Assembly (NCBI GenBank): GCA_963798915.1 | Contig: CAWCVB010000002.1 | Coordinates: 416,001 to 480,000 of the forward strand | Origin: an uncultured Gemmatimonadales bacterium | GTDB lineage: Bacteria; Gemmatimonadota; Gemmatimonadetes; Gemmatimonadales; GWC2-71-9 | Length of the DNA stretch: 64,000 nt | Reading direction: 5' to 3' | Shown here: positions 10,084 through 62,297 of the stretch, one piece after another | How the letters are laid out: every line of letters begins with the position of its first letter | How positions within the stretch are numbered: the stretch's first letter is position 1 | The notes under the pieces: generated by a model | Databases searched by the model: none | What the model was told of the DNA's origin: nothing | The model's input: only the letters and a program-made list of their open reading frames with translations | Program-made: the position numbers and the translations under genes

Positions 10084-11103
10084 ATGATGTCCCGTCGAGC
10101 CCGCCTGGTGATGGCCATCGGAGCCCTGCTCATGCTGGTGGCCTATGTGGCGCCGCTGTGGCGCATCCAGCTGCTCGCGCCGCAGTATCCGGAGGGGTTG
10201 GGCCTCCGCATCTGGGTAAGCCAGGTGCGGGGCGCCAGCCCGCCGGACCTCAACAGCATCAACAACCTGAATCATTACATCGGCATGAAGCGGATCGAGC
10301 CCGGTGCGATTCCGGAGCTGCGCTTCATGCCATGGATCCTTGCTGGCCTCATTGCCAGCGGACTCCTGGTGACACTACTCGGGCGACGAAAAGTGCTGCT
10401 GGGCTGGCTGGGGACCGCCTCGCTGGTGGCGCTCATCGGCCTCGCCGACTTCTGGAAGTGGGGTTACGACTATGGGCATGAGCTGGATCCGCATGCCATC
10501 ATCAAGATCCCGGGCATGAGCTACCAGCCGCCCCTGATCGGCGGCAAGCAGTTGTTGAATTTCCACGCCACATCCTGGCCGGACCTTGGGGGCTGGGTCA
10601 TTGTTGCCGCCCTGGTGCTCGCGCTGGCCGCCCTGATGCTCGATCGCCGCCGCTCGGCGGTCGCAAGCGCGGCTGTTGGTGCGCTGGTCGCGTGCGCCCA
10701 CGCTCCCCGGGCCATTCTGTATGGTGAAGAGGCCTGCGATCACTGCCACATGGTCATCACCGACCCGCGCTTTGCCGGACAGCTCGTGGCCAGCACGGGC
10801 CGGGTCTACGCCTTTGACGATGTCGGCTGCCTTGCCGCGTTCGCGGCCACGGGACCGGTGCAGGGCGCCCAGGTGCACGGCATCTTCGTCAACTCCTACG
10901 TGGCCACCGACAGCCAGTTCGAGGCCGCCGGCATGGTGTACCTCCGGAGCGCGGTCCTCCGCACGCCGATGGCGAGCGGGCTGGCGGCGCTTCGCCCGGG
11001 CGCCGAGGCGGACAGCGTCCGGGCGCTGCTGGGAGGCGAGCTGCTGAGCTGGGCGGAGGTGGTTGCCGCCGCGGACGAGGCGGCGCTGGCGCCGGTACCA
11101 TGA
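10084..11103 (+). CDS. nosL: NosB-NosL fusion
   Basis: N-half APQYPEGL...INNLNHYIGMK (NosB-like); C-half CDHCHMVI, FDDVGC, TPMASG (NosL). Confidence 0.85.
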   Translation: MMSRRARLVMAIGALLMLVAYVAPLWRIQLLAPQYPEGLGLRIWVSQVRGASPPDLNSINNLNHYIGMKRIEPGAIPELRFMPWILAGLIASGLLVTLLGRRKVLLGWLGTASLVALIGLADFWKWGYDYGHELDPHAIIKIPGMSYQPPLIGGKQLLNFHATSWPDLGGWVIVAALVLALAALMLDRRRSAVASAAVGALVACAHAPRAILYGEEACDHCHMVITDPRFAGQLVASTGRVYAFDDVGCLAAFAATGPVQGAQVHGIFVNSYVATDSQFEAAGMVYLRSAVLRTPMASGLAALRPGAEADSVRALLGGELLSWAEVVAAADEAALAPVP

Positions 11104-12317
11104 CCGGAGCGCTGTTCCTGATGGTGTTGATGGGTGTGCCGGCCCGAACCATCGTGGTCGCGCCCGGTACGTCAATCGCCACCGTGGCGGACGCACTTGG
11201 CCGGGCCGTGGATGGCGACACCATTCTGGTGCAGCCCGGTGTGTATCACGAGGCCGAACTGCACGTGACGAAGCAGGTCGTCATCCTGGGGCGGGACATG
11301 CCGGTCCTGGATGGGGGCGGCCGGCCAGTCCTCTTCATCGAGGCCGACAGCGTCGTCGTCGAGGGCCTCCTCATCCGGAACGTGGCGTCCAGCTTTACCG
11401 ACGACCGCGCCGCCATCCGGACGGACGGAGTGGATGGGTGCGTCATTCGCGGCAACGTCATTCGCGACAGCTTCTTCGCGATCTATGCGGCCCGGTCGAG
11501 CAACTGCATCATCGCCGGAAACCGTGTCGTCGGGAGCGGGAAGGGCGAGACGTTCAACGGCAATGCCATTCACCTCTATAATACCCGCGGATTCCTGGTG
11601 GAGCGGAATGACCTGCGCGGCCACCGCGACGGGATCTACATCGAGTTCGGCCGGTTGGCGACGGTCCGAAGCAACCGGAGCGAGGGAAACACGCGCTACG
11701 GGCTGCATTTCATGTACTCCGATTCCTGCGAATACCGCCAGAACACCTTTCATGCCAACCGGGCGGGCGTGGCGGTGATGTATTCCCACGTCGTGCTGAT
11801 GATGGGCAACAGCTTTTCCGGCGCGACCGGTGCCGGCGGCTACGGCCTCCTGCTCAAGGAAATCGGCGAGAGCCGACTGGAGGACAACGTCTTCAGCGGA
11901 AACACTGTGGCGCTGTCCGTCGAGGGGAGCGAGCGGCTGGTGGCGCGCGGCAACCGCTTCCAGCGGAATGGCTGGGCGGTGCGGCTCTCCGGCGCGGCGG
12001 ATGGTGGCCGCTTCGAGCGCAACCAGTTTGTGGGAAACGCCTTCGATGTGGTCACCAGCACTCGTCATGCCGCCACCCACTTCTCGGCAAACTTCTGGGA
12101 CCGCTACGAGGGCTATGACCTCGATCGGGACGGCCGGGGTGATGTCCCGTTCCGTCCCGTGCGGCTCTTCGGCCTCATCGTGGAGCAGCATCGCGGAGCG
12201 ATCATCCTGCTGAACAGTCTGCTTGTGGACCTCCTTGAAACCGCGGAACGGGTCGCGCCGGTGCTCACGCCCGAACTGCCGGTCGATTCCATGCCACTGA
12301 TGCGGTGGCACGCGTGA
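11100..12317 (+). CDS. nosD: Nitrous-oxide reductase maturation protein NosD
   Basis: Beta-helix; HRDGIY, RYGLHFMYS, GYDLDRDG. Confidence 0.95.
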   Translation: MTGALFLMVLMGVPARTIVVAPGTSIATVADALGRAVDGDTILVQPGVYHEAELHVTKQVVILGRDMPVLDGGGRPVLFIEADSVVVEGLLIRNVASSFTDDRAAIRTDGVDGCVIRGNVIRDSFFAIYAARSSNCIIAGNRVVGSGKGETFNGNAIHLYNTRGFLVERNDLRGHRDGIYIEFGRLATVRSNRSEGNTRYGLHFMYSDSCEYRQNTFHANRAGVAVMYSHVVLMMGNSFSGATGAGGYGLLLKEIGESRLEDNVFSGNTVALSVEGSERLVARGNRFQRNGWAVRLSGAADGGRFERNQFVGNAFDVVTSTRHAATHFSANFWDRYEGYDLDRDGRGDVPFRPVRLFGLIVEQHRGAIILLNSLLVDLLETAERVAPVLTPELPVDSMPLMRWHA

Positions 12318-13093
12318 GCGCGCTGACATCGCCGCGCCAACGACGCCGGCTCGCCCTGGTGGCCGCCAGCGGCATCCCGGTGGAGACACGCGCGCTCGAC
12401 AAGTCGTTCGGTCCGCTGGTGGTGCTCCGCCAGGCGAGCGTCACGTTCCATCCTGGACGCACCACGGCGCTCATCGGGCCGAACGCGGCCGGGAAGACGA
12501 CCCTCCTCAAGTGCATCCTCGGGCTGGTGCGCCCCGATTCGGGCGTGATAATGGTTGGTGAGCACGTGGCCGGTGCCGGGGAGGCATATCGCCGGCTGAT
12601 CGGATACATGCCGCAGTCAGCCAGCTTTCCCGAGCACCTGACCGTGGGGGAAGTGACCCGCATGATCCGTGACCTGCGCGGGAGCGAAGGCATTCCGGAC
12701 AATGAGCTGCTGCAGCGGTTCGAGCTGGCCCGATTCCACGATAGCGCGGTGCGCACCCTCTCGGGCGGCACCAGGCAGAAGCTCAACGCGGCACTGGCCT
12801 TCATGTTCCGGCCGCAGGTGCTGATCCTGGACGAGCCCACCGCCGGACTGGATCCGATCGCGGCCGGGATTCTCAAGGAGAAGGTGGCGCAGGCGCGCGA
12901 TGCCGGTGCGACGATCATCATCACCTCGCACGTCATCGCTGAACTCGAGGAATTATCGGATGACGTGGTGCTGCTGCTGGACGGCGCCGTCTGCTATCAG
13001 GGCCCGCTGGGCAGGATCAGCCGGGAGACCGGCGAGGCCCGCCTGGAACGCGCCGTCGCGGCCTTGATGCGTCCGACCGGCCGTCAGCCATGA
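12314..13093 (+). CDS. nosF: ABC ATPase NosF
   Basis: GPNAAGKT, LSGG, ILDEPTAGLD; GTGA overlap with nosD. Confidence 0.92.
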   Translation: MSALTSPRQRRRLALVAASGIPVETRALDKSFGPLVVLRQASVTFHPGRTTALIGPNAAGKTTLLKCILGLVRPDSGVIMVGEHVAGAGEAYRRLIGYMPQSASFPEHLTVGEVTRMIRDLRGSEGIPDNELLQRFELARFHDSAVRTLSGGTRQKLNAALAFMFRPQVLILDEPTAGLDPIAAGILKEKVAQARDAGATIIITSHVIAELEELSDDVVLLLDGAVCYQGPLGRISRETGEARLERAVAALMRPTGRQP

Positions 13094-13878
13094 ACGTGAC
13101 GGGCAAGGTTTTCCGCTACCAGCTCGAGAACGTGCGCCGAAGCCGCGCCGTGCTGGTCTATGCCTTGCTGCTGCTGGTGGTGACCCACTCACTGCTGCAT
13201 TTTGGCGGGGGCGGCTCGAGGGCACTGCTCAGCCTGCTGAACGTGGTCCTCATTTTTGTGCCGCTGGTGAGCCTGGTGTTCGGGACCGTCTATCTCTACG
13301 GCGCGCGCGAGTTCATTGAACTCCTGCTGGCCCAGCCGGTAAGCCGGCGCGCGCTGTTCACCGGACTGTGGGGCGGGCTCACGCTGCCGCTGGTGCTGGC
13401 CTTCGTGCTGGGAACCGGATTGCCCTTTCTCTGGCATGGTGGACTGGGCGGGATGATGCTGCCGCTCGGTATGCTGCTGCTCTCCGGCAGTCTCCTTACC
13501 GCCGCCTTCAGCGCCGTGTCCATGTGGATTGCCATCCGCGTCGATGACAGGGCCCGGGGACTCGGCCTTGCCCTGGCGGCGTGGACCGTCACCGCCATCG
13601 CCTGGGACGCTCTTGTCCTGCTGGTGGTCGCCCTTGCCGGTGACCGGCCGCTGGAGTTCGTCCTCCTGGGCCTCTCAATGGCCAATCCGGTGGATGCGGC
13701 GCGCGTGGGCCTGGTGCTGACGCTGGATGCACCGGCGCTGATGGGCTATACCGGCGCGGTCATGCGTCACGCGCTGGGTGCTCATGGCGGCGCGCTATTG
13801 AGCGTCGGTGCCTTGCTGCTCTGGGCGACGTTGCCCCTCCTGCTGGCTGCTCGCCGCTTCCAGCGCAAGGATTTCTAG
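13090..13878 (+). CDS. nosY: ABC permease NosY
   Basis: REFIELLLAQP, NPVDAAR, ALMGYTGA, RKDF end. Confidence 0.92.
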   Translation: MNVTGKVFRYQLENVRRSRAVLVYALLLLVVTHSLLHFGGGGSRALLSLLNVVLIFVPLVSLVFGTVYLYGAREFIELLLAQPVSRRALFTGLWGGLTLPLVLAFVLGTGLPFLWHGGLGGMMLPLGMLLLSGSLLTAAFSAVSMWIAIRVDDRARGLGLALAAWTVTAIAWDALVLLVVALAGDRPLEFVLLGLSMANPVDAARVGLVLTLDAPALMGYTGAVMRHALGAHGGALLSVGALLLWATLPLLLAARRFQRKDF

Positions 13879-13981
13879 GCTGAAGGCTCAAAGTTCGAGG
13901 CCAAAGGCGCAAGGCCCAAGGCGTTATCCTCGCTTCAGCCTTCAGCCTTCAGCCTTCAGCCTTCAGCCTTCAGCCTTCAGC
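13879..13981. repeat. Palindromic heptamer element (GCTGAAG-like x6 / core / CTTCAGC x7)
   Basis: Begins right after the nosY stop; core GCCCAAGGCGTTATCCTCG recurs at 14674-14692. Confidence 0.9.
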
Positions 13982-14017: not shown

Positions 14018-14242
14018 ATGACACGCACCACTATCACAATCCCCGAAGAGTTGCTGGATCGGCTCAGGGTCGCCGCTGCTCAACAGCGGCGATCCATCGC
14101 GGCGCTGGTGCGCGAGGCGGTGGAGGAGATGGTCGCGCGGGTTCGGCCGCGTCCGCGCAGTCTCGGCATCGGGTCGTCAGACCACACCGACACCGCCCGG
14201 CGCACCGCCGTTGAGCGGCCGGAGCCCCGATCGTGGCGCTGA
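14018..14242 (+). CDS. vapB: CopG/ribbon-helix-helix antitoxin
   Basis: RTTITIPEELL...SIAALVREAV; overlaps the PIN gene. Confidence 0.88.
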   Translation: MTRTTITIPEELLDRLRVAAAQQRRSIAALVREAVEEMVARVRPRPRSLGIGSSDHTDTARRTAVERPEPRSWR

Positions 14243-14652
14243 TTCTCGACACCGGCCCACTGTACGCATCGCTTGACCGAAGCGACGCCGACCACGAAGC
14301 CTGCCGTCGACTCATCGAAGATGCGGGCGAGCCCCTCGTCATCCCTGCGCCTGTGCTGGTCGAAGTGGATTACTGGATTCACCTGCGCCTCAATCCCGGG
14401 GTCCTGGTGGCGCTCCTCGATGACATCGTGACTGGCGCGTACATGGTGGAAGCGCTACTACCGGAAGACTACCGTCGCGTCCAGCAGCTCTCGGACCGCT
14501 ACGCCGACAGTGATATCGGGTTCGTCGACGCCGCGGTGCTGGCCATCGTGGAGCGACTGGGTGAGCCGAAACTCGCGACTCTGGACCGGAGACACTTCGG
14601 GCTCCTGCGACCACGCCACGTGGATGCGCTCACGCTCGTCCCCTCTGCATAG
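14233..14652 (+). CDS. vapC: PIN-domain toxin
   Basis: ILDTG, VLVEV, GFVDAA, ATLDRRHF. Confidence 0.92.
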   Translation: MALILDTGPLYASLDRSDADHEACRRLIEDAGEPLVIPAPVLVEVDYWIHLRLNPGVLVALLDDIVTGAYMVEALLPEDYRRVQQLSDRYADSDIGFVDAAVLAIVERLGEPKLATLDRRHFGLLRPRHVDALTLVPSA

Positions 14653-14659
14653 GTGCTGG

Positions 14660-14709
14660 GCTGAAGGCTGAAGGCCCAAAGCGTTATCCTCGTTCAGCCT
14701 TCAGCCTTC
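14660..14709. repeat. Second copy of the palindromic heptamer element
   Basis: gctgaag gctgaag gcccaaa gcgttatcctcg ttcagc cttcagc. Confidence 0.9.
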
Positions 14710-15270
14710 GACACGATGCACGGACTCACACAGCACCAGCTGGCCCACCGCGGGCGAGGCGCCCCGGAGCCGCACCACGTACTGATAGCCCAGGTCGAAG
14801 GGCGCCGTGGCATCCACCGGCGTGATGCTGATGACTTGCGAGTCGGCCACCAGCAGGGCGCCACTGGCGGGCTGGGCGATGAGTGCCAGCATGGGCGCGC
14901 TGGTGAGCCCGCCACCGGTCGCCGTGATCTGGGCCGAGCCCAGCGCGCCCACCGCCGTGGCGTGGCCGTCCGGCGTGACGCTCACCATGCCGGTGTTGGA
15001 GGACGTCCAGGTGACGGCCGGGGCTTGGACCTCCTGCCCATCGGCAGCAAAGGCCTGGACCGTGAGTGGCCGCACATCGCCGGCCGTGGTGAACAGCACC
15101 GCGCCGGGCACGATCTCCAGCCGGCTGGCCACGCCCGGAGCGGGGCCCGGCCCAAGGCCCGGCCCGGTGCTGTCCCCGCCGCCGCAACCGAGCGCCAGCA
15201 GCAGCGCGAACCCCTCGACCATCCGTACCCAACGCCCGCTGGCGGCGCGGCGACGCTTCAGCACGTCCAT
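14701..15270 (-). pseudogene. Truncated N-terminal copy of the Ig-like lipoprotein at 16605-19105
   Basis: 14731-15200 closely matches 18585-19040; similarity ends at GQLVL, stop lies in the repeat. Confidence 0.8.

Positions 15271-23351: not shown

Positions 23352-23370
<19 letters not shown>
19382..23370 (+). CDS. SARP/BTAD transcriptional regulator with AAA ATPase, TM helix and TPR region; frameshift near 20128
   Basis: wHTH-BTAD N-terminus; LIG..PEL, GEEGSGKS, AVDD, SGGNPL; TM after RWR; RRIAVMPF; TPRs. Confidence 0.82.
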
Positions 23371-25302
<1,932 letters not shown>

Positions 25303-59397: not shown

Positions 59398-60012
59398 ATG
59401 CCAATCCCATCAACGCTGGTCATCCGCACGTTTGCTGACCGGTCGGAAGGGCTGGCCCACTTCGTCATGCGGGCCGGCGAAGCCCCCCGGCTGCTTGCGT
59501 TTGACGATGCCTATGGCTGCCCGATCGACAACGCGCTGTCCGCCCTCGAATGGACCGGCGCCGTCGGCATCCTCCGGGACGAGGACATGCTCCACGCCGC
59601 GCGTCTCACCAGCGAGACCGCCGCCGCCGTGATCGAGCGGAAAACGGAGAACGGTGTGCGGTGCTACGTCTATCTCGGCCCCCGCCTGGACGCGCCGCCG
59701 ATGGACGTGTTCGAGGGCGCAGTGCTCTTCGACGAGCCCGGTGTCAAGGCCGTGGAGTTCAGCCAGCGGGCCCACGCCCTGGCGCACTTCCTGCGAGCAA
59801 CCTCCGGCGCAGGTGCCCTGGTGGCCATGCTCGGCCGTCGGGCGCCCGAAGTGCGTTATCTCCGCCGCTGGCTCGGCGCAATCCTGGAACATGTCGAGCC
59901 ACCCTGCGCCATGGTTGGCGGCTGGTTCGCCGTCAGCTCGGCCGGAGTCCTGTTCACCGCCAACGGGGGCGAGCCGTCCTGGCGCTATGTCGAGGTGGGG
60001 TCAGAAACATGA
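59398..60012 (+). CDS. Hypothetical protein with internal duplication
   Basis: FADRSEGLAHF and FSQRAHALAHF. Confidence 0.75.
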   Translation: MPIPSTLVIRTFADRSEGLAHFVMRAGEAPRLLAFDDAYGCPIDNALSALEWTGAVGILRDEDMLHAARLTSETAAAVIERKTENGVRCYVYLGPRLDAPPMDVFEGAVLFDEPGVKAVEFSQRAHALAHFLRATSGAGALVAMLGRRAPEVRYLRRWLGAILEHVEPPCAMVGGWFAVSSAGVLFTANGGEPSWRYVEVGSET

Positions 60013-60587
60013 AGCTGCTGTTCTCAGCAGGTGCTGCCGTGATGCTTGTCTTCTCTGCTGCCACGACCGCCGTCGCCCAGGCGACGGTCATCCGTCCCGA
60101 CCGGCGGCTTACTCCGGCCGAAACCGAATTGCGCTCGGCCTTGTACCAGCTTCGCGACTCACTGGCGACCCTGTCCGGCGCGGCCGCGCGGATGGATCGC
60201 GATTTTGCCCGCACATCTCCACCCGCCCTGGTCTCACGGGCGCGCCAGGTCCAGCTCGGCTGCGAGGCCGCAGCGCGCAACATTCCTGACCCTGAGGCCA
60301 AGGTGCGGTCCCACCCCATGCGGACCGAACTGGAAGCGAAGCAGCAGGCCCAATTGCTCAAGGCCTACACCGAACTTGACCAGGCCCTCACGGCCTGCAG
60401 CAAGACCTTTGGTGCGATGGCGAAGCCCGGCGCCGGCGAAGAAGTCCGCGGCTACGGCAATGCCAGAATCCGGTCGCTCAACGTGGAACTCAAGCGCTAC
60501 GGCCGAGCCGCGGACGACTTCTTCAGCGCCCTGCGGATTCCCAACCGGCCGCTGGGCGCCGGGCCCAACCCTTTCAACAACGGCTGA
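60009..60587 (+). CDS. Hypothetical secreted helical protein
   Basis: Signal peptide AVA-Q; overlaps the upstream stop. Confidence 0.75.
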   Translation: MKLLFSAGAAVMLVFSAATTAVAQATVIRPDRRLTPAETELRSALYQLRDSLATLSGAAARMDRDFARTSPPALVSRARQVQLGCEAAARNIPDPEAKVRSHPMRTELEAKQQAQLLKAYTELDQALTACSKTFGAMAKPGAGEEVRGYGNARIRSLNVELKRYGRAADDFFSALRIPNRPLGAGPNPFNNG

Positions 60588-60607
60588 AATCAGGTCCCCG
60601 GCAGCCA

Positions 60608-60640
60608 GGGAGGGCGGCGTTTGCCGCCCTCCCGTCTTTT
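60608..60640 (+). terminator. Intrinsic terminator
   Basis: GGGAGGGCGGC-gttt-GCCGCCCTCCC-gtctttt. Confidence 0.88.
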
Positions 60641-60739
60641 GTGGACATGTGTTCATGTGGATACACATGTCCACAGCATGTGGAAAGACCGGCGCAGCCC
60701 ATGCCGGGACAGTGACTTGCGGGCCCGGCTTCTTCCACA
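60640..60739. promoter_or_regulatory. Cluster of five DnaA-box-like nonamers
   Basis: TGTGGACAT, TGTGGATAC, ATGTCCACA, TGTGGAAAG, TCTTCCACA (1-2 mismatches to TTATCCACA). Confidence 0.55.
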
Positions 60740-60769
60740 TTCAAAGTGAGCTAAACCGAATAAAATCAG

Positions 60770-60802
60770 GCACTTGCGCGATTCTGACGCAAGTGCAATT
60801 AT
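60770..60802 (+). promoter_or_regulatory. Putative promoter with overlapping inverted repeat
   Basis: TTGCGC-17bp-AATTAT; GCACTTGCG-N9-CGCAAGTGC. Confidence 0.5.
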
Positions 60803-60806
60803 GAGT

Positions 60807-61221
60807 GCACGCGATTCGTCACGTGTGCGGACTCCGGGTTCGTGCGGCGAGCGATGAGCGGTTCGGCTGGATGTGCGGTGGAGGCAGGCGAACTTCCCAA
60901 GGGTATCGTCTGTCGTTGAGACCGAATCACATTCAGTCGGGCTGGCGAGGCCAGTCGCGTGCCTCGTCCACCCCGATCTGGCGCCTCGGGGTGCAGTGTG
61001 AACGGCCGATCCGCGACTCGGTCGGACTCGCAGCGCCAGCAGTGATGAACCAGGTGGGATGGCCATCCGGCCTGGGAATCAACGTTGAAGCCCCATCCGT
61101 GTCCTCCCGATCGGGAAACCGGCGGCGGCACCAGGGAGAAGAACGGCGGCGCAAGCTCCGCCTTCAGCCTGTCACTGCGAGAAGCGGCCATCCAGCCACG
61201 ACTGGGTGGCCGTTTCGTTTT
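60807..61221 (+). ncRNA. Unidentified large structured RNA (one RNA or two in tandem)
   Basis: No credible ORF; many helices with G-U pairs, GAAA/GCAA tetraloops, pseudoknot, 3' terminator. Confidence 0.75.
61181..61221 (+). terminator. Terminator closing the putative ncRNA
   Basis: GAAGCGGCCATCCAG / CTGGGTGGCCGTTTC then GTTTT. Confidence 0.8.
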
Positions 61222-61233
61222 GGGGAGATGGGA

Positions 61234-61308
61234 GCTGAAAGCTGAGAGCTGAAGGCTGAAAGCTGAGAAAGGCTGAGAGCTGAGAGCATTTAGCCCTCAG
61301 CTCTCGGC
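61234..61308. repeat. GCTGARA heptamer palindromic element
   Basis: Seven GCTGA units, then tttagc cctcagc tctcggc; contains the stop of the yhaM-like gene. Confidence 0.85.
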
Positions 61309-62297
61309 AGCTCCTGCCCATCCCGACCCCAATCAAACCTGCCCCGGTAGGCCCGCCGGCGATCCAGCTGCCAGAGGGTCCGGGTGCTGGTCAGCGCATC
61401 CTCGACAAAATTCTCCGGATCAGCGAGCGCGTCTGCCATGCTGGCAGACTTGGCGCTGGCGTTGTCAGCGTAATGCAGGATCTCGGCTTCCAGTGTCATG
61501 GGCGGAACCGCGGCGCCGAATTCGAGCCGCCCATGGTGCGAGAGGATCATGTGCTGGATCAGCTCGGCTTCGCCATCGAGGCAGGGCGCCGGCTCGCACG
61601 AGCGCAGGGCGCGGTCGAACATGAGTGCGCCCAGTACGACGTGTCCCAGCAGCCGGCCCGCCACGGTGTAGTCGAAGACCCCATCCCAGCGATAGCACTC
61701 CAGCTTTCCGATATCGTGCAGCAGTGCGCCGGCCAGCACGAGGTCTTCGTCGCCGCCGGAAACCTTGGCGATGGTGCGGCCGATCGCCGCCACCTCGAGC
61801 ACATGCTTGAGCAACCCGCCCAGGGCGGCGTGGTGGCCCTTGGGGCTGGCCGGGCATTCCGCAAAACGACGGCGGAAGTCGTGGTCTTCGAAGAAGAGGT
61901 CGAGCGTGCGGCGCAACCGTGGGCCTCGCACCGCTGAGCGCCATTCATCCAGCTTGCGCCAGTATACCTCCGGGTTGCCCACCGACGGCATGAGGTCCGC
62001 AAGGTCAATCTGACCTGTCGGCAGCACCCGGATGGAGCTGATGCTGAGCTGGCGCTTGCCCCGGTATTCACCCACTTCGCCAATGATCTGCGTCACCAGT
62101 CCCTTGCTGATGCCGGCCACCCGCTGCTGGTCCGGACCCCAGAAGGGGGCGGAATCGATCTGACCGGTGGCATTGCCGAGGGTGAGGACAGTGCAATCCT
62201 TGTCGCCACCATACGAACGGACCTGGACATCCCATACCAGGAAGGGGTGTTGAATCCGCTCGCCGATGGCGAGGCGTTTCAGGTCGCGAATGGTCAT
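61290..62297 (-). CDS. yhaM: OB-fold + HD-domain 3'-5' exoribonuclease YhaM/Cbf1-like
   Basis: PAS..HHA..GGLLKH, LLHDIGK, GHV, ILSHHG..EFG, HYADN. Confidence 0.88.
   Translation of the reverse strand: MTIRDLKRLAIGERIQHPFLVWDVQVRSYGGDKDCTVLTLGNATGQIDSAPFWGPDQQRVAGISKGLVTQIIGEVGEYRGKRQLSISSIRVLPTGQIDLADLMPSVGNPEVYWRKLDEWRSAVRGPRLRRTLDLFFEDHDFRRRFAECPASPKGHHAALGGLLKHVLEVAAIGRTIAKVSGGDEDLVLAGALLHDIGKLECYRWDGVFDYTVAGRLLGHVVLGALMFDRALRSCEPAPCLDGEAELIQHMILSHHGRLEFGAAVPPMTLEAEILHYADNASAKSASMADALADPENFVEDALTSTRTLWQLDRRRAYRGRFDWGRDGQELPRAEG

Follow-up and report, generated by a model that had tools for sequence, protein, structure and literature searches.

A conserved structured RNA of about 413 nucleotides in Gemmatimonadales, preceded by a DnaA-box-like array

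We analysed a 64,000-nucleotide (nt) stretch of the genome of an uncultured Gemmatimonadales bacterium (GenBank assembly GCA_963798915.1, contig CAWCVB010000002.1, positions 416,001 to 480,000; hereafter the window, in whose coordinates positions are given unless a relative is named), and describe here an RNA element of about 413 nt on its plus strand at 60807-61221, which lies in a 702-bp intergenic gap between a plus-strand gene ending at 60587 and a convergent minus-strand gene ending at 61290. The element is non-coding and has two domains, a 5' part with two helical sub-domains and a 3' multi-helix domain, which are joined by a compact core in which an H-type pseudoknot locks three neighbouring hairpins together; this fold is kept by compensatory substitutions across sequences of ~57% identity. 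We are highly confident that the element is a genuine structured RNA gene in its own right and belongs to a new family. Our explanation as a whole, which we hold to be probable when weighted towards its observed part, is that of a trans-acting structured RNA, specific to the order Gemmatimonadales as far as sampled, which would be transcribed from a conserved -35/-10 pair near 60807-60809. Five upstream DnaA-box-like sites would control this promoter and thereby tie RNA synthesis to the state of the replication initiator, and the invariant elements of the RNA (loops GUCGCG and CGCGAC; strands GAAGAACGG and CGGCGGC) may, on weaker grounds, form a tertiary or quaternary interface that binds a protein or another molecule of the same RNA, rather than acting through simple antisense pairing or cis-regulation.

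Relatives were obtained from a single scan of a genome collection anchored on the convergent HD-domain neighbour (YhaM-like at 141 bits, under the family cut-off), which returned 14 loci (L001 to L014), all from metagenome-assembled genomes (MAGs) of Gemmatimonadales or Gemmatimonadota, the best HD protein match being 79% identical. Across the window and these loci, nhmmer (E<=10) found the RNA nine times, including in 8 of the 14 loci: six copies are full length (window, L001, L003, L008, L009 and L012) and three are truncated where their contig stops (L002, L007 and L010). The contig of L013 ends with a 47-nt piece of the RNA terminator, L004 and L014 end within the HD gene, L006 ends short of the expected RNA site, and nhmmer found no RNA in the 2-4 kb of downstream sequence of L005 and L011. 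The copies fall into clade A (window, L001, L002 and L003) and clade B (L007 to L010 and L012), with 89-97% identity within clades and 55-58% between them. Plasmid and phage collections held no DNA similar to the RNA element. As a separate observation, four independent MAG contigs break within the last 47-160 nt of the RNA (L002 at 11169, L007 at 12462, L010 at 15811 and L013 at 11123), three of them near profile position 291-313, which suggests branching of the assembly graph there, either because the 3' domain is identical among co-assembled strains or because there is more than one copy per genome.

The secondary structure model was built from per-sequence pair probabilities placed on the alignment, an exhaustive list of helices over all sequences and manual checks of long-range helices; RNAalifold on the raw nine-row alignment was dropped, as it gave only 73 pairs and included some wrong long-range pairs. 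The final model comprises 136 pairs in 19 helices, one pseudoknot included, and its elements are as follows.

60807-61221, plus strand: structured non-coding RNA, ~413 nt, delimited by nhmmer matches and the 136-pair model
60812-60857, plus strand: 5' sub-domain I, an outer helix around hairpin 60824-32/60838-46
60861-60942, plus strand: 5' sub-domain II, a long outer helix (60861-67/60936-42) with two inner helices, including 60884-91/60906-13
60944-60968, plus strand: hairpin with the invariant 9-nt loop CAGUCGCGU (60952-60960)
60969-60993, plus strand: hairpin whose loop makes the pseudoknot
60980-61037, plus strand: pseudoknot, 60980-60984 with 61033-61037, 5 pairs
60997-61032, plus strand: two-part hairpin (60997-61001/61028-32 and 61003-09/61018-24) with the invariant loop UCCGCGAC (61010-61017)
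61039-61178, plus strand: 3' domain with closing helix 61039-47/61170-78
61181-61221, plus strand: intrinsic terminator of the RNA, a 15-bp hairpin (61181-61216) followed by UUUCGUUUU, with a U-tract to 61221

Covariation across the nine copies carries this model. Standard pairs make up 90.9% of the model's 867 cells in the alignment, whereas controls in which the 3' partners are shifted by 1-3 columns reach 36.6-45.0%; both bases have changed in 30 pairs, compared with 2-6 pairs in these controls. The model derives from the same sequences, so the paired fraction is biased upward, with the compensatory counts less affected. In 500 shuffles the paired fraction, the number of compensatory pairs and the covariation score all stay below the observed values, a comparison subject to the tool's caveat that related sequences may beat shuffles even without structure. 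Several pairs take three states or change within a clade (columns 24/40, 147/167, 181/238, 207/222 and 247/379), and the covariation signal therefore does not stem from a single split. Sub-domains of each sequence folded alone give the same architecture in both clades. Invariant columns account for 53.0% of paired and 52.6% of unpaired positions.

Within the 5' part, hairpin 60824-32/60838-46 of sub-domain I is 98% paired with 4 compensatory pairs, and the architecture of this sub-domain is predicted in 5 of 6 sequences folded alone, the minimum-energy fold of the window's own copy being the one that differs. The outer helix of sub-domain II is 100% paired, with six one-sided changes and one compensatory change. 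Its two inner helices score low because of alignment error, as the per-sequence folds show: both are predicted in all six sequences folded alone, among them the previously noted helix 60884-91/60906-13, which is only 77% paired in the MAFFT alignment. In the core, the stem of the hairpin at 60944-60968 is 98% paired with 2 compensatory pairs, its loop lying within an invariant 17-nt run (60949-60965); hairpin 60969-76/60986-93 is 100% paired with 2 compensatory pairs (CC/GG to GU/AC); and the two parts of the hairpin at 60997-61032 are each 100% paired, with 2 and 3 compensatory pairs respectively. The five pseudoknot pairs are 100% paired and two of them are compensatory, one changing from C-G to U-A and another from G-C to A-U or G.U.

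The 3' domain takes the same fold in all six sequences folded alone. Its closing helix is 89% paired with 3 compensatory changes and encloses hairpin 61050-75 (61050-59/61066-75, 88% paired, 3 compensatory), helix 61084-91/61161-68 (87%, 2 compensatory), an arm at 61092-61136 with a GNRA-type loop, the invariant junction strand GAAGAACGG (61138-46) and a GCAA hairpin at 61144-60. GNRA hairpins occur in all copies, as GAAA or GCAA at 61111-22 and as GCAA at 61144-60; clade B carries a 6-nt GCAACA loop at the first of these, and its GCAA hairpin is exactly one base pair longer through a 2-nt indel.

Most of this had been anticipated by a preliminary description of the window, made by eye from the single sequence, which proposed a free-standing structured plus-strand RNA of ~410 nt and suggested collecting homologues and testing covariation. 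Folding statistics and the changes seen in relatives bear out the RNA itself, hairpin 60969-76/60986-93, the closing helix of the 3' domain, hairpin 61050-75, helix 61084-90/61162-68 (now 61084-91/61161-68) and the GNRA hairpins. Of its 7-bp pseudoknot, the 5-bp core 60980-84/61033-37 stands and the two outer pairs are confined to clade A. Its helix 60807-16/60953-62 stays unproven. It is 78% paired, an invariant 3' side restricts it to one-sided changes, and two supported helices, the stem 60944-51/60961-68 and the outer one of sub-domain I, are in competition with it. In all six full-length sequences GUCGCG (60954-59) is perfectly complementary to CGCGAC (61012-17), both lying in invariant loops. 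Invariance extends to three further runs, GCCUCG at the pseudoknot as well as CGGCGGC and GAAGAACGG, which both lie in the 3' junction.

Strand and coding potential were assessed on the same copies. The region 60800-61225 folds on the plus strand at -210 kcal/mol (z -3.46, equalled by none of 100 dinucleotide shuffles) and on the minus strand at -169.9 kcal/mol (z -0.21, equalled by 38 of 100), such that only the plus strand folds beyond chance, and cells of the model contain 111 G.U against 15 A.C combinations, which fixes the strand as plus. Long open reading frames (ORFs) overlap the RNA on both strands (146 aa on plus; 130 aa and 137 aa on minus), and in a set of 5.8 billion predicted proteins the antisense ORF finds just six counterparts, as opposed to at least 1192 clusters for the upstream gene orf204; on these grounds one could propose that the 146-aa plus or the 130-aa minus ORF is a protein-coding gene. 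The signature of such a gene, which the preliminary description had named as a possible refutation, is missing. GC by codon position is flat in the overlapping ORFs (e.g. 0.66/0.62/0.67, against 0.70/0.45/0.79 in a real neighbouring gene), and all three lack Pfam matches. Substitutions by codon phase show no periodicity, at 9/15/12 and 11/13/14 within clade A and 18/21/18 within clade B, nor do the 49 fixed inter-clade differences in a 190-column indel-free block (14/19/16), and of the 8 indels between the clades 7 break the frame, their lengths not being divisible by three. Moreover, ORFs of both strands are equally "conserved", as DNA identity alone predicts. We consider a coding gene here to have next to no probability. 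The six database entries indicate that annotators now and then call spurious proteins over the RNA; we tried such calls as a gauge of its distribution and rejected them, six matches being uninformative on its spread.

Membership of a known RNA family was the next alternative to be weighed. At Rfam 15 gathering thresholds there are no matches in the gap and none in 141 kb of relatives (14 loci), and the whole window contains one RNA, a thiamine pyrophosphate (TPP) riboswitch at 23466-23563. A permissive Rfam scan of 60550-61350 gave 26 matches with E 0.03-9.5, all far below gathering scores and mostly microRNA-type hairpin models on two palindromes outside the RNA body, and the same scan of the L008 copy (E<=5) gave three, which we regard as noise. 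Neither gathering nor permissive scans contain 6S, RNase P, transfer-messenger RNA (tmRNA) or signal recognition particle (SRP) RNA, or any model match for OLE, ROOL, GOLLD, raiA or HEARO, and ARAGORN predicts no tRNA or tmRNA gene in the 64 kb. These blanks agree with the earlier statement that the element shows no signatures of RNase P, tmRNA, SRP, tRNA or a common riboswitch, and the Rfam scan that it had recommended returned no full-length match, 6S included. By contrast, the kinship with Bacteroidales-1 and Chlorobi-1 that it had suggested finds no support: neither family appears in the permissive scans, even at E<=10 in the window (E<=5 in L008), and the short motifs on which the suggestion turned are not conserved as such between clades (GAAUCAAC against GAUAGAAG or GAUGGAAG; GUCCUCCCG against GCCCUACCG). 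The RNA might still be a diverged member of one of these families (Bacteroidales-1, Chlorobi-1, 6S, RNase P, tmRNA or the OLE/ROOL/GOLLD/raiA group), and its size is similar to that of RNase P RNA and tmRNA, but given the empty scans we judge this highly improbable. Open-access papers and bioRxiv main texts yielded no report of a Gemmatimonad* structured RNA, non-coding RNA (ncRNA), riboswitch or 6S, nor of a matching new large RNA. We therefore rate the element as a new family within a known kind, the orphan large structured bacterial RNAs, its unusual feature being the conserved DnaA-box-like array upstream.

Approximately 170 bp upstream of the RNA are conserved in both clades, and hold the following elements.

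60640-60739, no strand assigned: five DnaA-box-like 9-mers, ATGTCCACA (twice), GTATCCACA, CTTTCCACA and TCTTCCACA, each with <=2 mismatches to TTATCCACA
60745-60771, plus strand: AT-rich block separating the last box from the -35, resembling an UP element or a short unwinding element
60769-60780, plus strand: invariant block GGCACTTGCGCG, holding the putative -35 TTGCGC (60774-60779)
60797-60802, plus strand: putative -10 AATTAT, 17 nt past the -35, with a predicted start at ~60807-60809

All six homologues share the block GGCACTTGCGCG without a change, and the window contains it a single time. The -10-like hexamer reads AATTAT, GATACT or AATACT at 17 nt in clade A and TAGATT, TAAATT or TAGATT at 16 nt in clade B, with positions A2 and T6 kept in all six. 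This placement puts the start near a conserved ACG at 60807-60809, and the promoter of the RNA remains putative, being proposed from conservation only. The preliminary description had given the RNA its own promoter and terminator. The terminator holds in all nine copies, as a 3' hairpin and U-tract whose stem sequence differs between clades, and a terminator scan match at 61195-61210 (plus strand) is the tip of the 15-bp stem; the promoter is represented by the conserved -35/-10-like pair in 6 of 6 copies, which falls under the scan threshold. A minus-strand terminator-like hairpin at 60796-60770, which sits in the non-conserved promoter spacer, was put down to chance.

With respect to the boxes, a passage of PMC5043019 gives TTATCCACA as the perfect DnaA box and up to two mismatches as conventionally allowed. 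The window, with a GC content of 66.8%, has 13 strong boxes (7-8 of 9 positions) in 64 kb, five of them within the array of ~100-110 bp, and thus contains a dense cluster of several 9-mers at <=2 mismatches. Elsewhere in the DNA examined there is at most one strong box per 110 bp, except at the homologous sites in L001 (four strong boxes) and L003 (five). The motif TTNTCCACA at <=1 mismatch matches 21 times in the window, against 21.3 expected, with 5 of the 21 within 60640-60739, and a perfect TGTGGA-N8-TCCACA occurs once in the 64 kb. Box offsets from the -35 (-118/-116, -107/-105, -95/-93, -53 and -42) are fixed in all six homologues, one box being missing in the window and one in L008, and one box per clade-B copy reaches 7 of 9. 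The AT-rich block is 27 nt long and 59% AT, only 0.4% of the window's 27-nt stretches being as AT-rich, and includes GAGCTAAMCCGAAKAAA, conserved in both clades. We also observed that the window genome has lost the box at -53 and gained, at 60640-60675, an extra box, a 13-bp perfect inverted repeat (TGTGGACATGTGT ... ACACATGTCCACA) and, just upstream, a terminator. In view of the B. subtilis clusters and of ccnA, both described below, we read the array as a DnaA-controlled promoter, a credible suggestion to which we give somewhat less than even odds.

The same array could be read as a chromosomal origin (oriC) or a DnaA-titrating cluster, with the RNA gene embedded in it or abutting it, as for ccnA. 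Five boxes with <=2 mismatches lie in 100 bp, and the AT-rich block begins ~10 bp past the last box, roughly the layout of an origin as outlined in part of PMC5043019; a section of PMC8959179 describes CcnA as a 182-nt ncRNA whose gene lies inside an origin with DnaA boxes. An oriC would be expected to join to a box cluster an AT-rich unwinding element of tens of bp, and to lie at the GC-skew switch, usually close to dnaA/dnaN. The origin-type evidence, however, consists of the box cluster and an AT-rich block of merely ~27 bp, with no repeated DnaA-trio pattern by eye; GC skew is flat, without a usable switch, in a window that ends 3 kb to the right; no replication-linked domains were found in the 49 window proteins scanned, out of 58 candidate ORFs; and fixed spacing of the boxes to the -35/-10 pair fits a regulated promoter better. 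We consider an origin or titrating cluster quite improbable.

Control of a promoter belonging to the RNA itself must also be set against the possibility that the RNA functions together with the upstream orf204-sec192 operon, either as its 3' untranslated region (UTR) or as a processing product. The pair orf204 (59398-60012, plus) and the gene of a small secreted protein (60009-60587, plus) is constant in both clades, with order and strand of orf204, secreted protein and RNA kept wherever the contig reaches (L003, L001 partly, L008 and L012). The preliminary description had the RNA insulated by an upstream terminator, which applies to the window alone:

60608-60633, plus strand: terminator of the upstream gene, outside the RNA unit and seen in the window genome only

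The remaining five full-length homologues leave about 4-25 nt between the end of the upstream gene and the first conserved box, and have no terminator in the 110 nt before that box. Yet the window keeps the RNA behind a strong terminator, the invariant -35 block and the conserved -10-like hexamer keep their spacing in 6 of 6, and a box array of ~150 nt would be unusual for a 3' UTR. A 3' tail of the operon is, in our view, distinctly unlikely. Separately, we note that the stop of orf204 overlaps the start of the secreted protein gene, and that the pair always precedes the RNA.

Downstream, the RNA has varied neighbours. Five of the nine copies face a convergent gene, either the HD gene (window, L001, L002 and L003) or a Kup transporter (L009), and in the other four (L007, L008, L010 and L012, all clade B) a same-strand operon of GT4 glycosyltransferase, deacetylase and LPG-synthase-like genes follows; the earlier statement that there is no downstream gene on the same strand accordingly holds for the window and four other copies but does not extend to these four. 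The operon starts 34-91 nt past the aligned RNA end, and RNA, terminator and then gene is the classic layout of an attenuator, which invites the view that the RNA is a cis-acting leader or riboswitch of that operon. Its beginning, though, lies behind the RNA terminator and a conserved TTGAC that suggests a promoter of its own, no riboswitch family matches, the operon is absent from five copies, and there is no conserved same-strand gene downstream of the kind expected for a leader. The RNA persists beside three different kinds of downstream gene, of which two are convergent; it is therefore not a cis-regulator and, as we read it, acts in trans. We give this alternative very little probability. 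The TTGAC just 3' of the terminator (L008 15600-15640, and L007, L010 and L012) is maybe the -35 of the operon, in which case RNA terminator and operon promoter may abut.

The constant neighbour orf204 is a candidate partner of the RNA. Its identity is 93% in L003, where neighbours are at ~75%, and ~50% in clade B, and its family has at least 1192 clusters, annotated as hypothetical only and from Gemmatimonadales wherever the organism is given. Against Pfam and NCBIfam it gave only FtsX at 15 bits (cut-off 255), and there was no usable match in the Atlas and none among PDB sequences. An AlphaFold2 model made with 19 hand-picked sequences of the more than 1192 has a predicted local distance difference test (pLDDT) score of 67.7, and Foldseek against the PDB returned no matches at E<=0.001, with best TM-scores of at most 0.22.

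As to how the RNA may act, an elaborate pseudoknotted core with invariant loops and junctions points to a specific three-dimensional interface. We propose a ribonucleoprotein (RNP) or self-assembly mode of action tentatively, as possible and somewhat doubtful. A trans-acting small RNA that base-pairs with mRNAs, using the invariant loops CAGUCGCGU and UCCGCGAC as seeds, would explain why the invariant runs sit in hairpin loops and would suit the terminator with its U-tract, as found in many such RNAs; CcnA, according to a section of PMC8959179, works by loop-mRNA pairing. A 413-nt RNA with 136 pairs, a pseudoknot and GNRA loops nevertheless exceeds what pairing needs, and the two supposed seeds are mutually complementary, suggesting an internal or RNA-RNA contact; we think base pairing with mRNAs unlikely. 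Beyond the proposed interface, the RNA could be wired to DnaA, with the complementary loops locking the fold or bridging copies into an RNA-only dimer or oligomer that acts on replication or the cell cycle, a speculative extension that we would not expect to hold. A bolder version would place the gene in the chromosomal origin itself.

Several points weigh against our explanation of a trans-acting RNA under its own DnaA-controlled promoter. The sample is just nine sequences in two clades, many compensatory cells derive from one split, the count of "further pair types" does not rise above shuffles (458 of 500), and synteny with the HD gene is a product of how the loci were fetched. The loop-loop contact GUCGCG/CGCGAC and the helix between the 5' end and a loop never vary, so that no covariation is possible there. 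A consensus promoter scan found no sites, and the -35/-10 pair fits just 8 of 12 consensus positions. Clade-B boxes mostly match 5-6 of 9 positions of the Escherichia coli consensus, keeping a TCCACA or TGCACA core, and another factor recognising TCCACA would fit the boxes equally well. With no terminator before the RNA in five of six homologues, operon read-through or processing is possible, and orf204, the constant neighbour, is without a recognisable family or fold and thus yields no partner protein.

Among known systems, the OLE, ROOL, GOLLD and raiA RNAs share with this one a length of hundreds of nt, a free-standing gene, covarying helices, pseudoknots, GNRA loops and hairpins with invariant loops, as well as restriction to certain lineages and a function not evident from the neighbours. 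OLE, ROOL and GOLLD are larger than ~413 nt. The present RNA differs from the group in having no Rfam model match, in its phylum, and in that no association with phage, tRNA or membrane-protein genes was seen. In OLE, ROOL and GOLLD, as set out in part of PMC12286853, conserved loops are kissing-loop bridges between copies, and one suggested reading of the complementary invariant loops here is that they would likewise act as kissing bridges between copies.

Bacteroidales-1 and Chlorobi-1 are orphan structured RNAs of the wider Fibrobacteres-Chlorobi-Bacteroidetes (FCB) group of bacteria, and are not among the 26 permissive window matches or the three in L008. The abundant regulatory RNAs 6S and CsrB/RsmZ, of which CsrB is of similar length, are trans-acting and have their own regulated promoter and terminator, as we propose for this RNA; it has no Rfam match to 6S and, unlike 6S, no single long hairpin with a central bubble. 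A Csr/Rsm-type sponge was considered and rejected, as GGA occurs 7-12 times per copy, against 8.0-9.2 in shuffles, with 1-4 unpaired, and there is no Rfam match to the Csr/Rsm families. CcnA of Caulobacter crescentus is, like this RNA, encoded next to or among DnaA boxes; ccnA lies within the Caulobacter origin among DnaA and CtrA boxes, and its expression is tied to cell-cycle regulators, as a section of PMC8959179 has it. It differs in being 182 nt long, CtrA-driven, located in a proven origin and active through loop-mRNA pairing, whereas the present RNA has ~413 nt, an ornate fold and a locus without other origin features, and homology between the two is not expected. Bacillus subtilis has eight intergenic clusters of 4-5 boxes with stably bound DnaA, which at some of them regulates the gene next to it, e.g. 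sda (PMC2533591, in part). These non-oriC clusters resemble our array in being dense, intergenic, of 4-5 DnaA boxes and conserved among relatives; they flank protein genes, whereas the array here flanks an RNA gene and its boxes are putative, with weak matches in clade B.

The remaining elements of the window are separate from the RNA. Immediately beyond its terminator lies a dispersed repeat:

61227-61308, no strand assigned: heptamer-array repeat (GCTGAAR)n, an inverted pair, resembling repetitive extragenic palindromic (REP) elements

This repeat has 19 matches in the window, against 0.10 expected, at five gene-end sites (13935-13981, 14660-14712, 23352-23417, 25249-25302 and 61227-61308), and is flagged by a tandem-repeat finder as well; relatives carry it at 6301-6367 in L002, 1251-1420 in L003 and 10967-11030 in L013. 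The arrays are often inverted pairs able to form long hairpins, every copy is at a gene 3' end, and the family looks like a REP-like element or bidirectional terminator of the lineage. The TPP riboswitch (plus strand; 60.3 bits against a gathering score of 54.3) lies directly upstream of the ThiC gene, whose ORF is called at 23498-25267 and whose true start is probably further downstream. A nosL/nosD-like cluster with an ABC transporter (10084-13878), followed by a PIN-domain gene (14233-14652), is unrelated to the RNA.

Large, intricately folded conserved bacterial RNAs are rare, and those that have been solved are ribozymes, guide RNAs, RNP scaffolds and self-assembling cages. Our survey of open-access papers and bioRxiv main texts found no described lineage-specific RNA of Gemmatimonadota, a phylum known mostly from metagenomes (all relatives used here are MAGs), to which this element would add a new RNA family. 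Its modest size (~413 nt), its supported pseudoknot and its putative kissing loops make it a compact target for cryo-electron microscopy or chemical probing, and the DnaA boxes that may control it give an unusually concrete handle for testing directly whether replication initiation is linked to a structured RNA.

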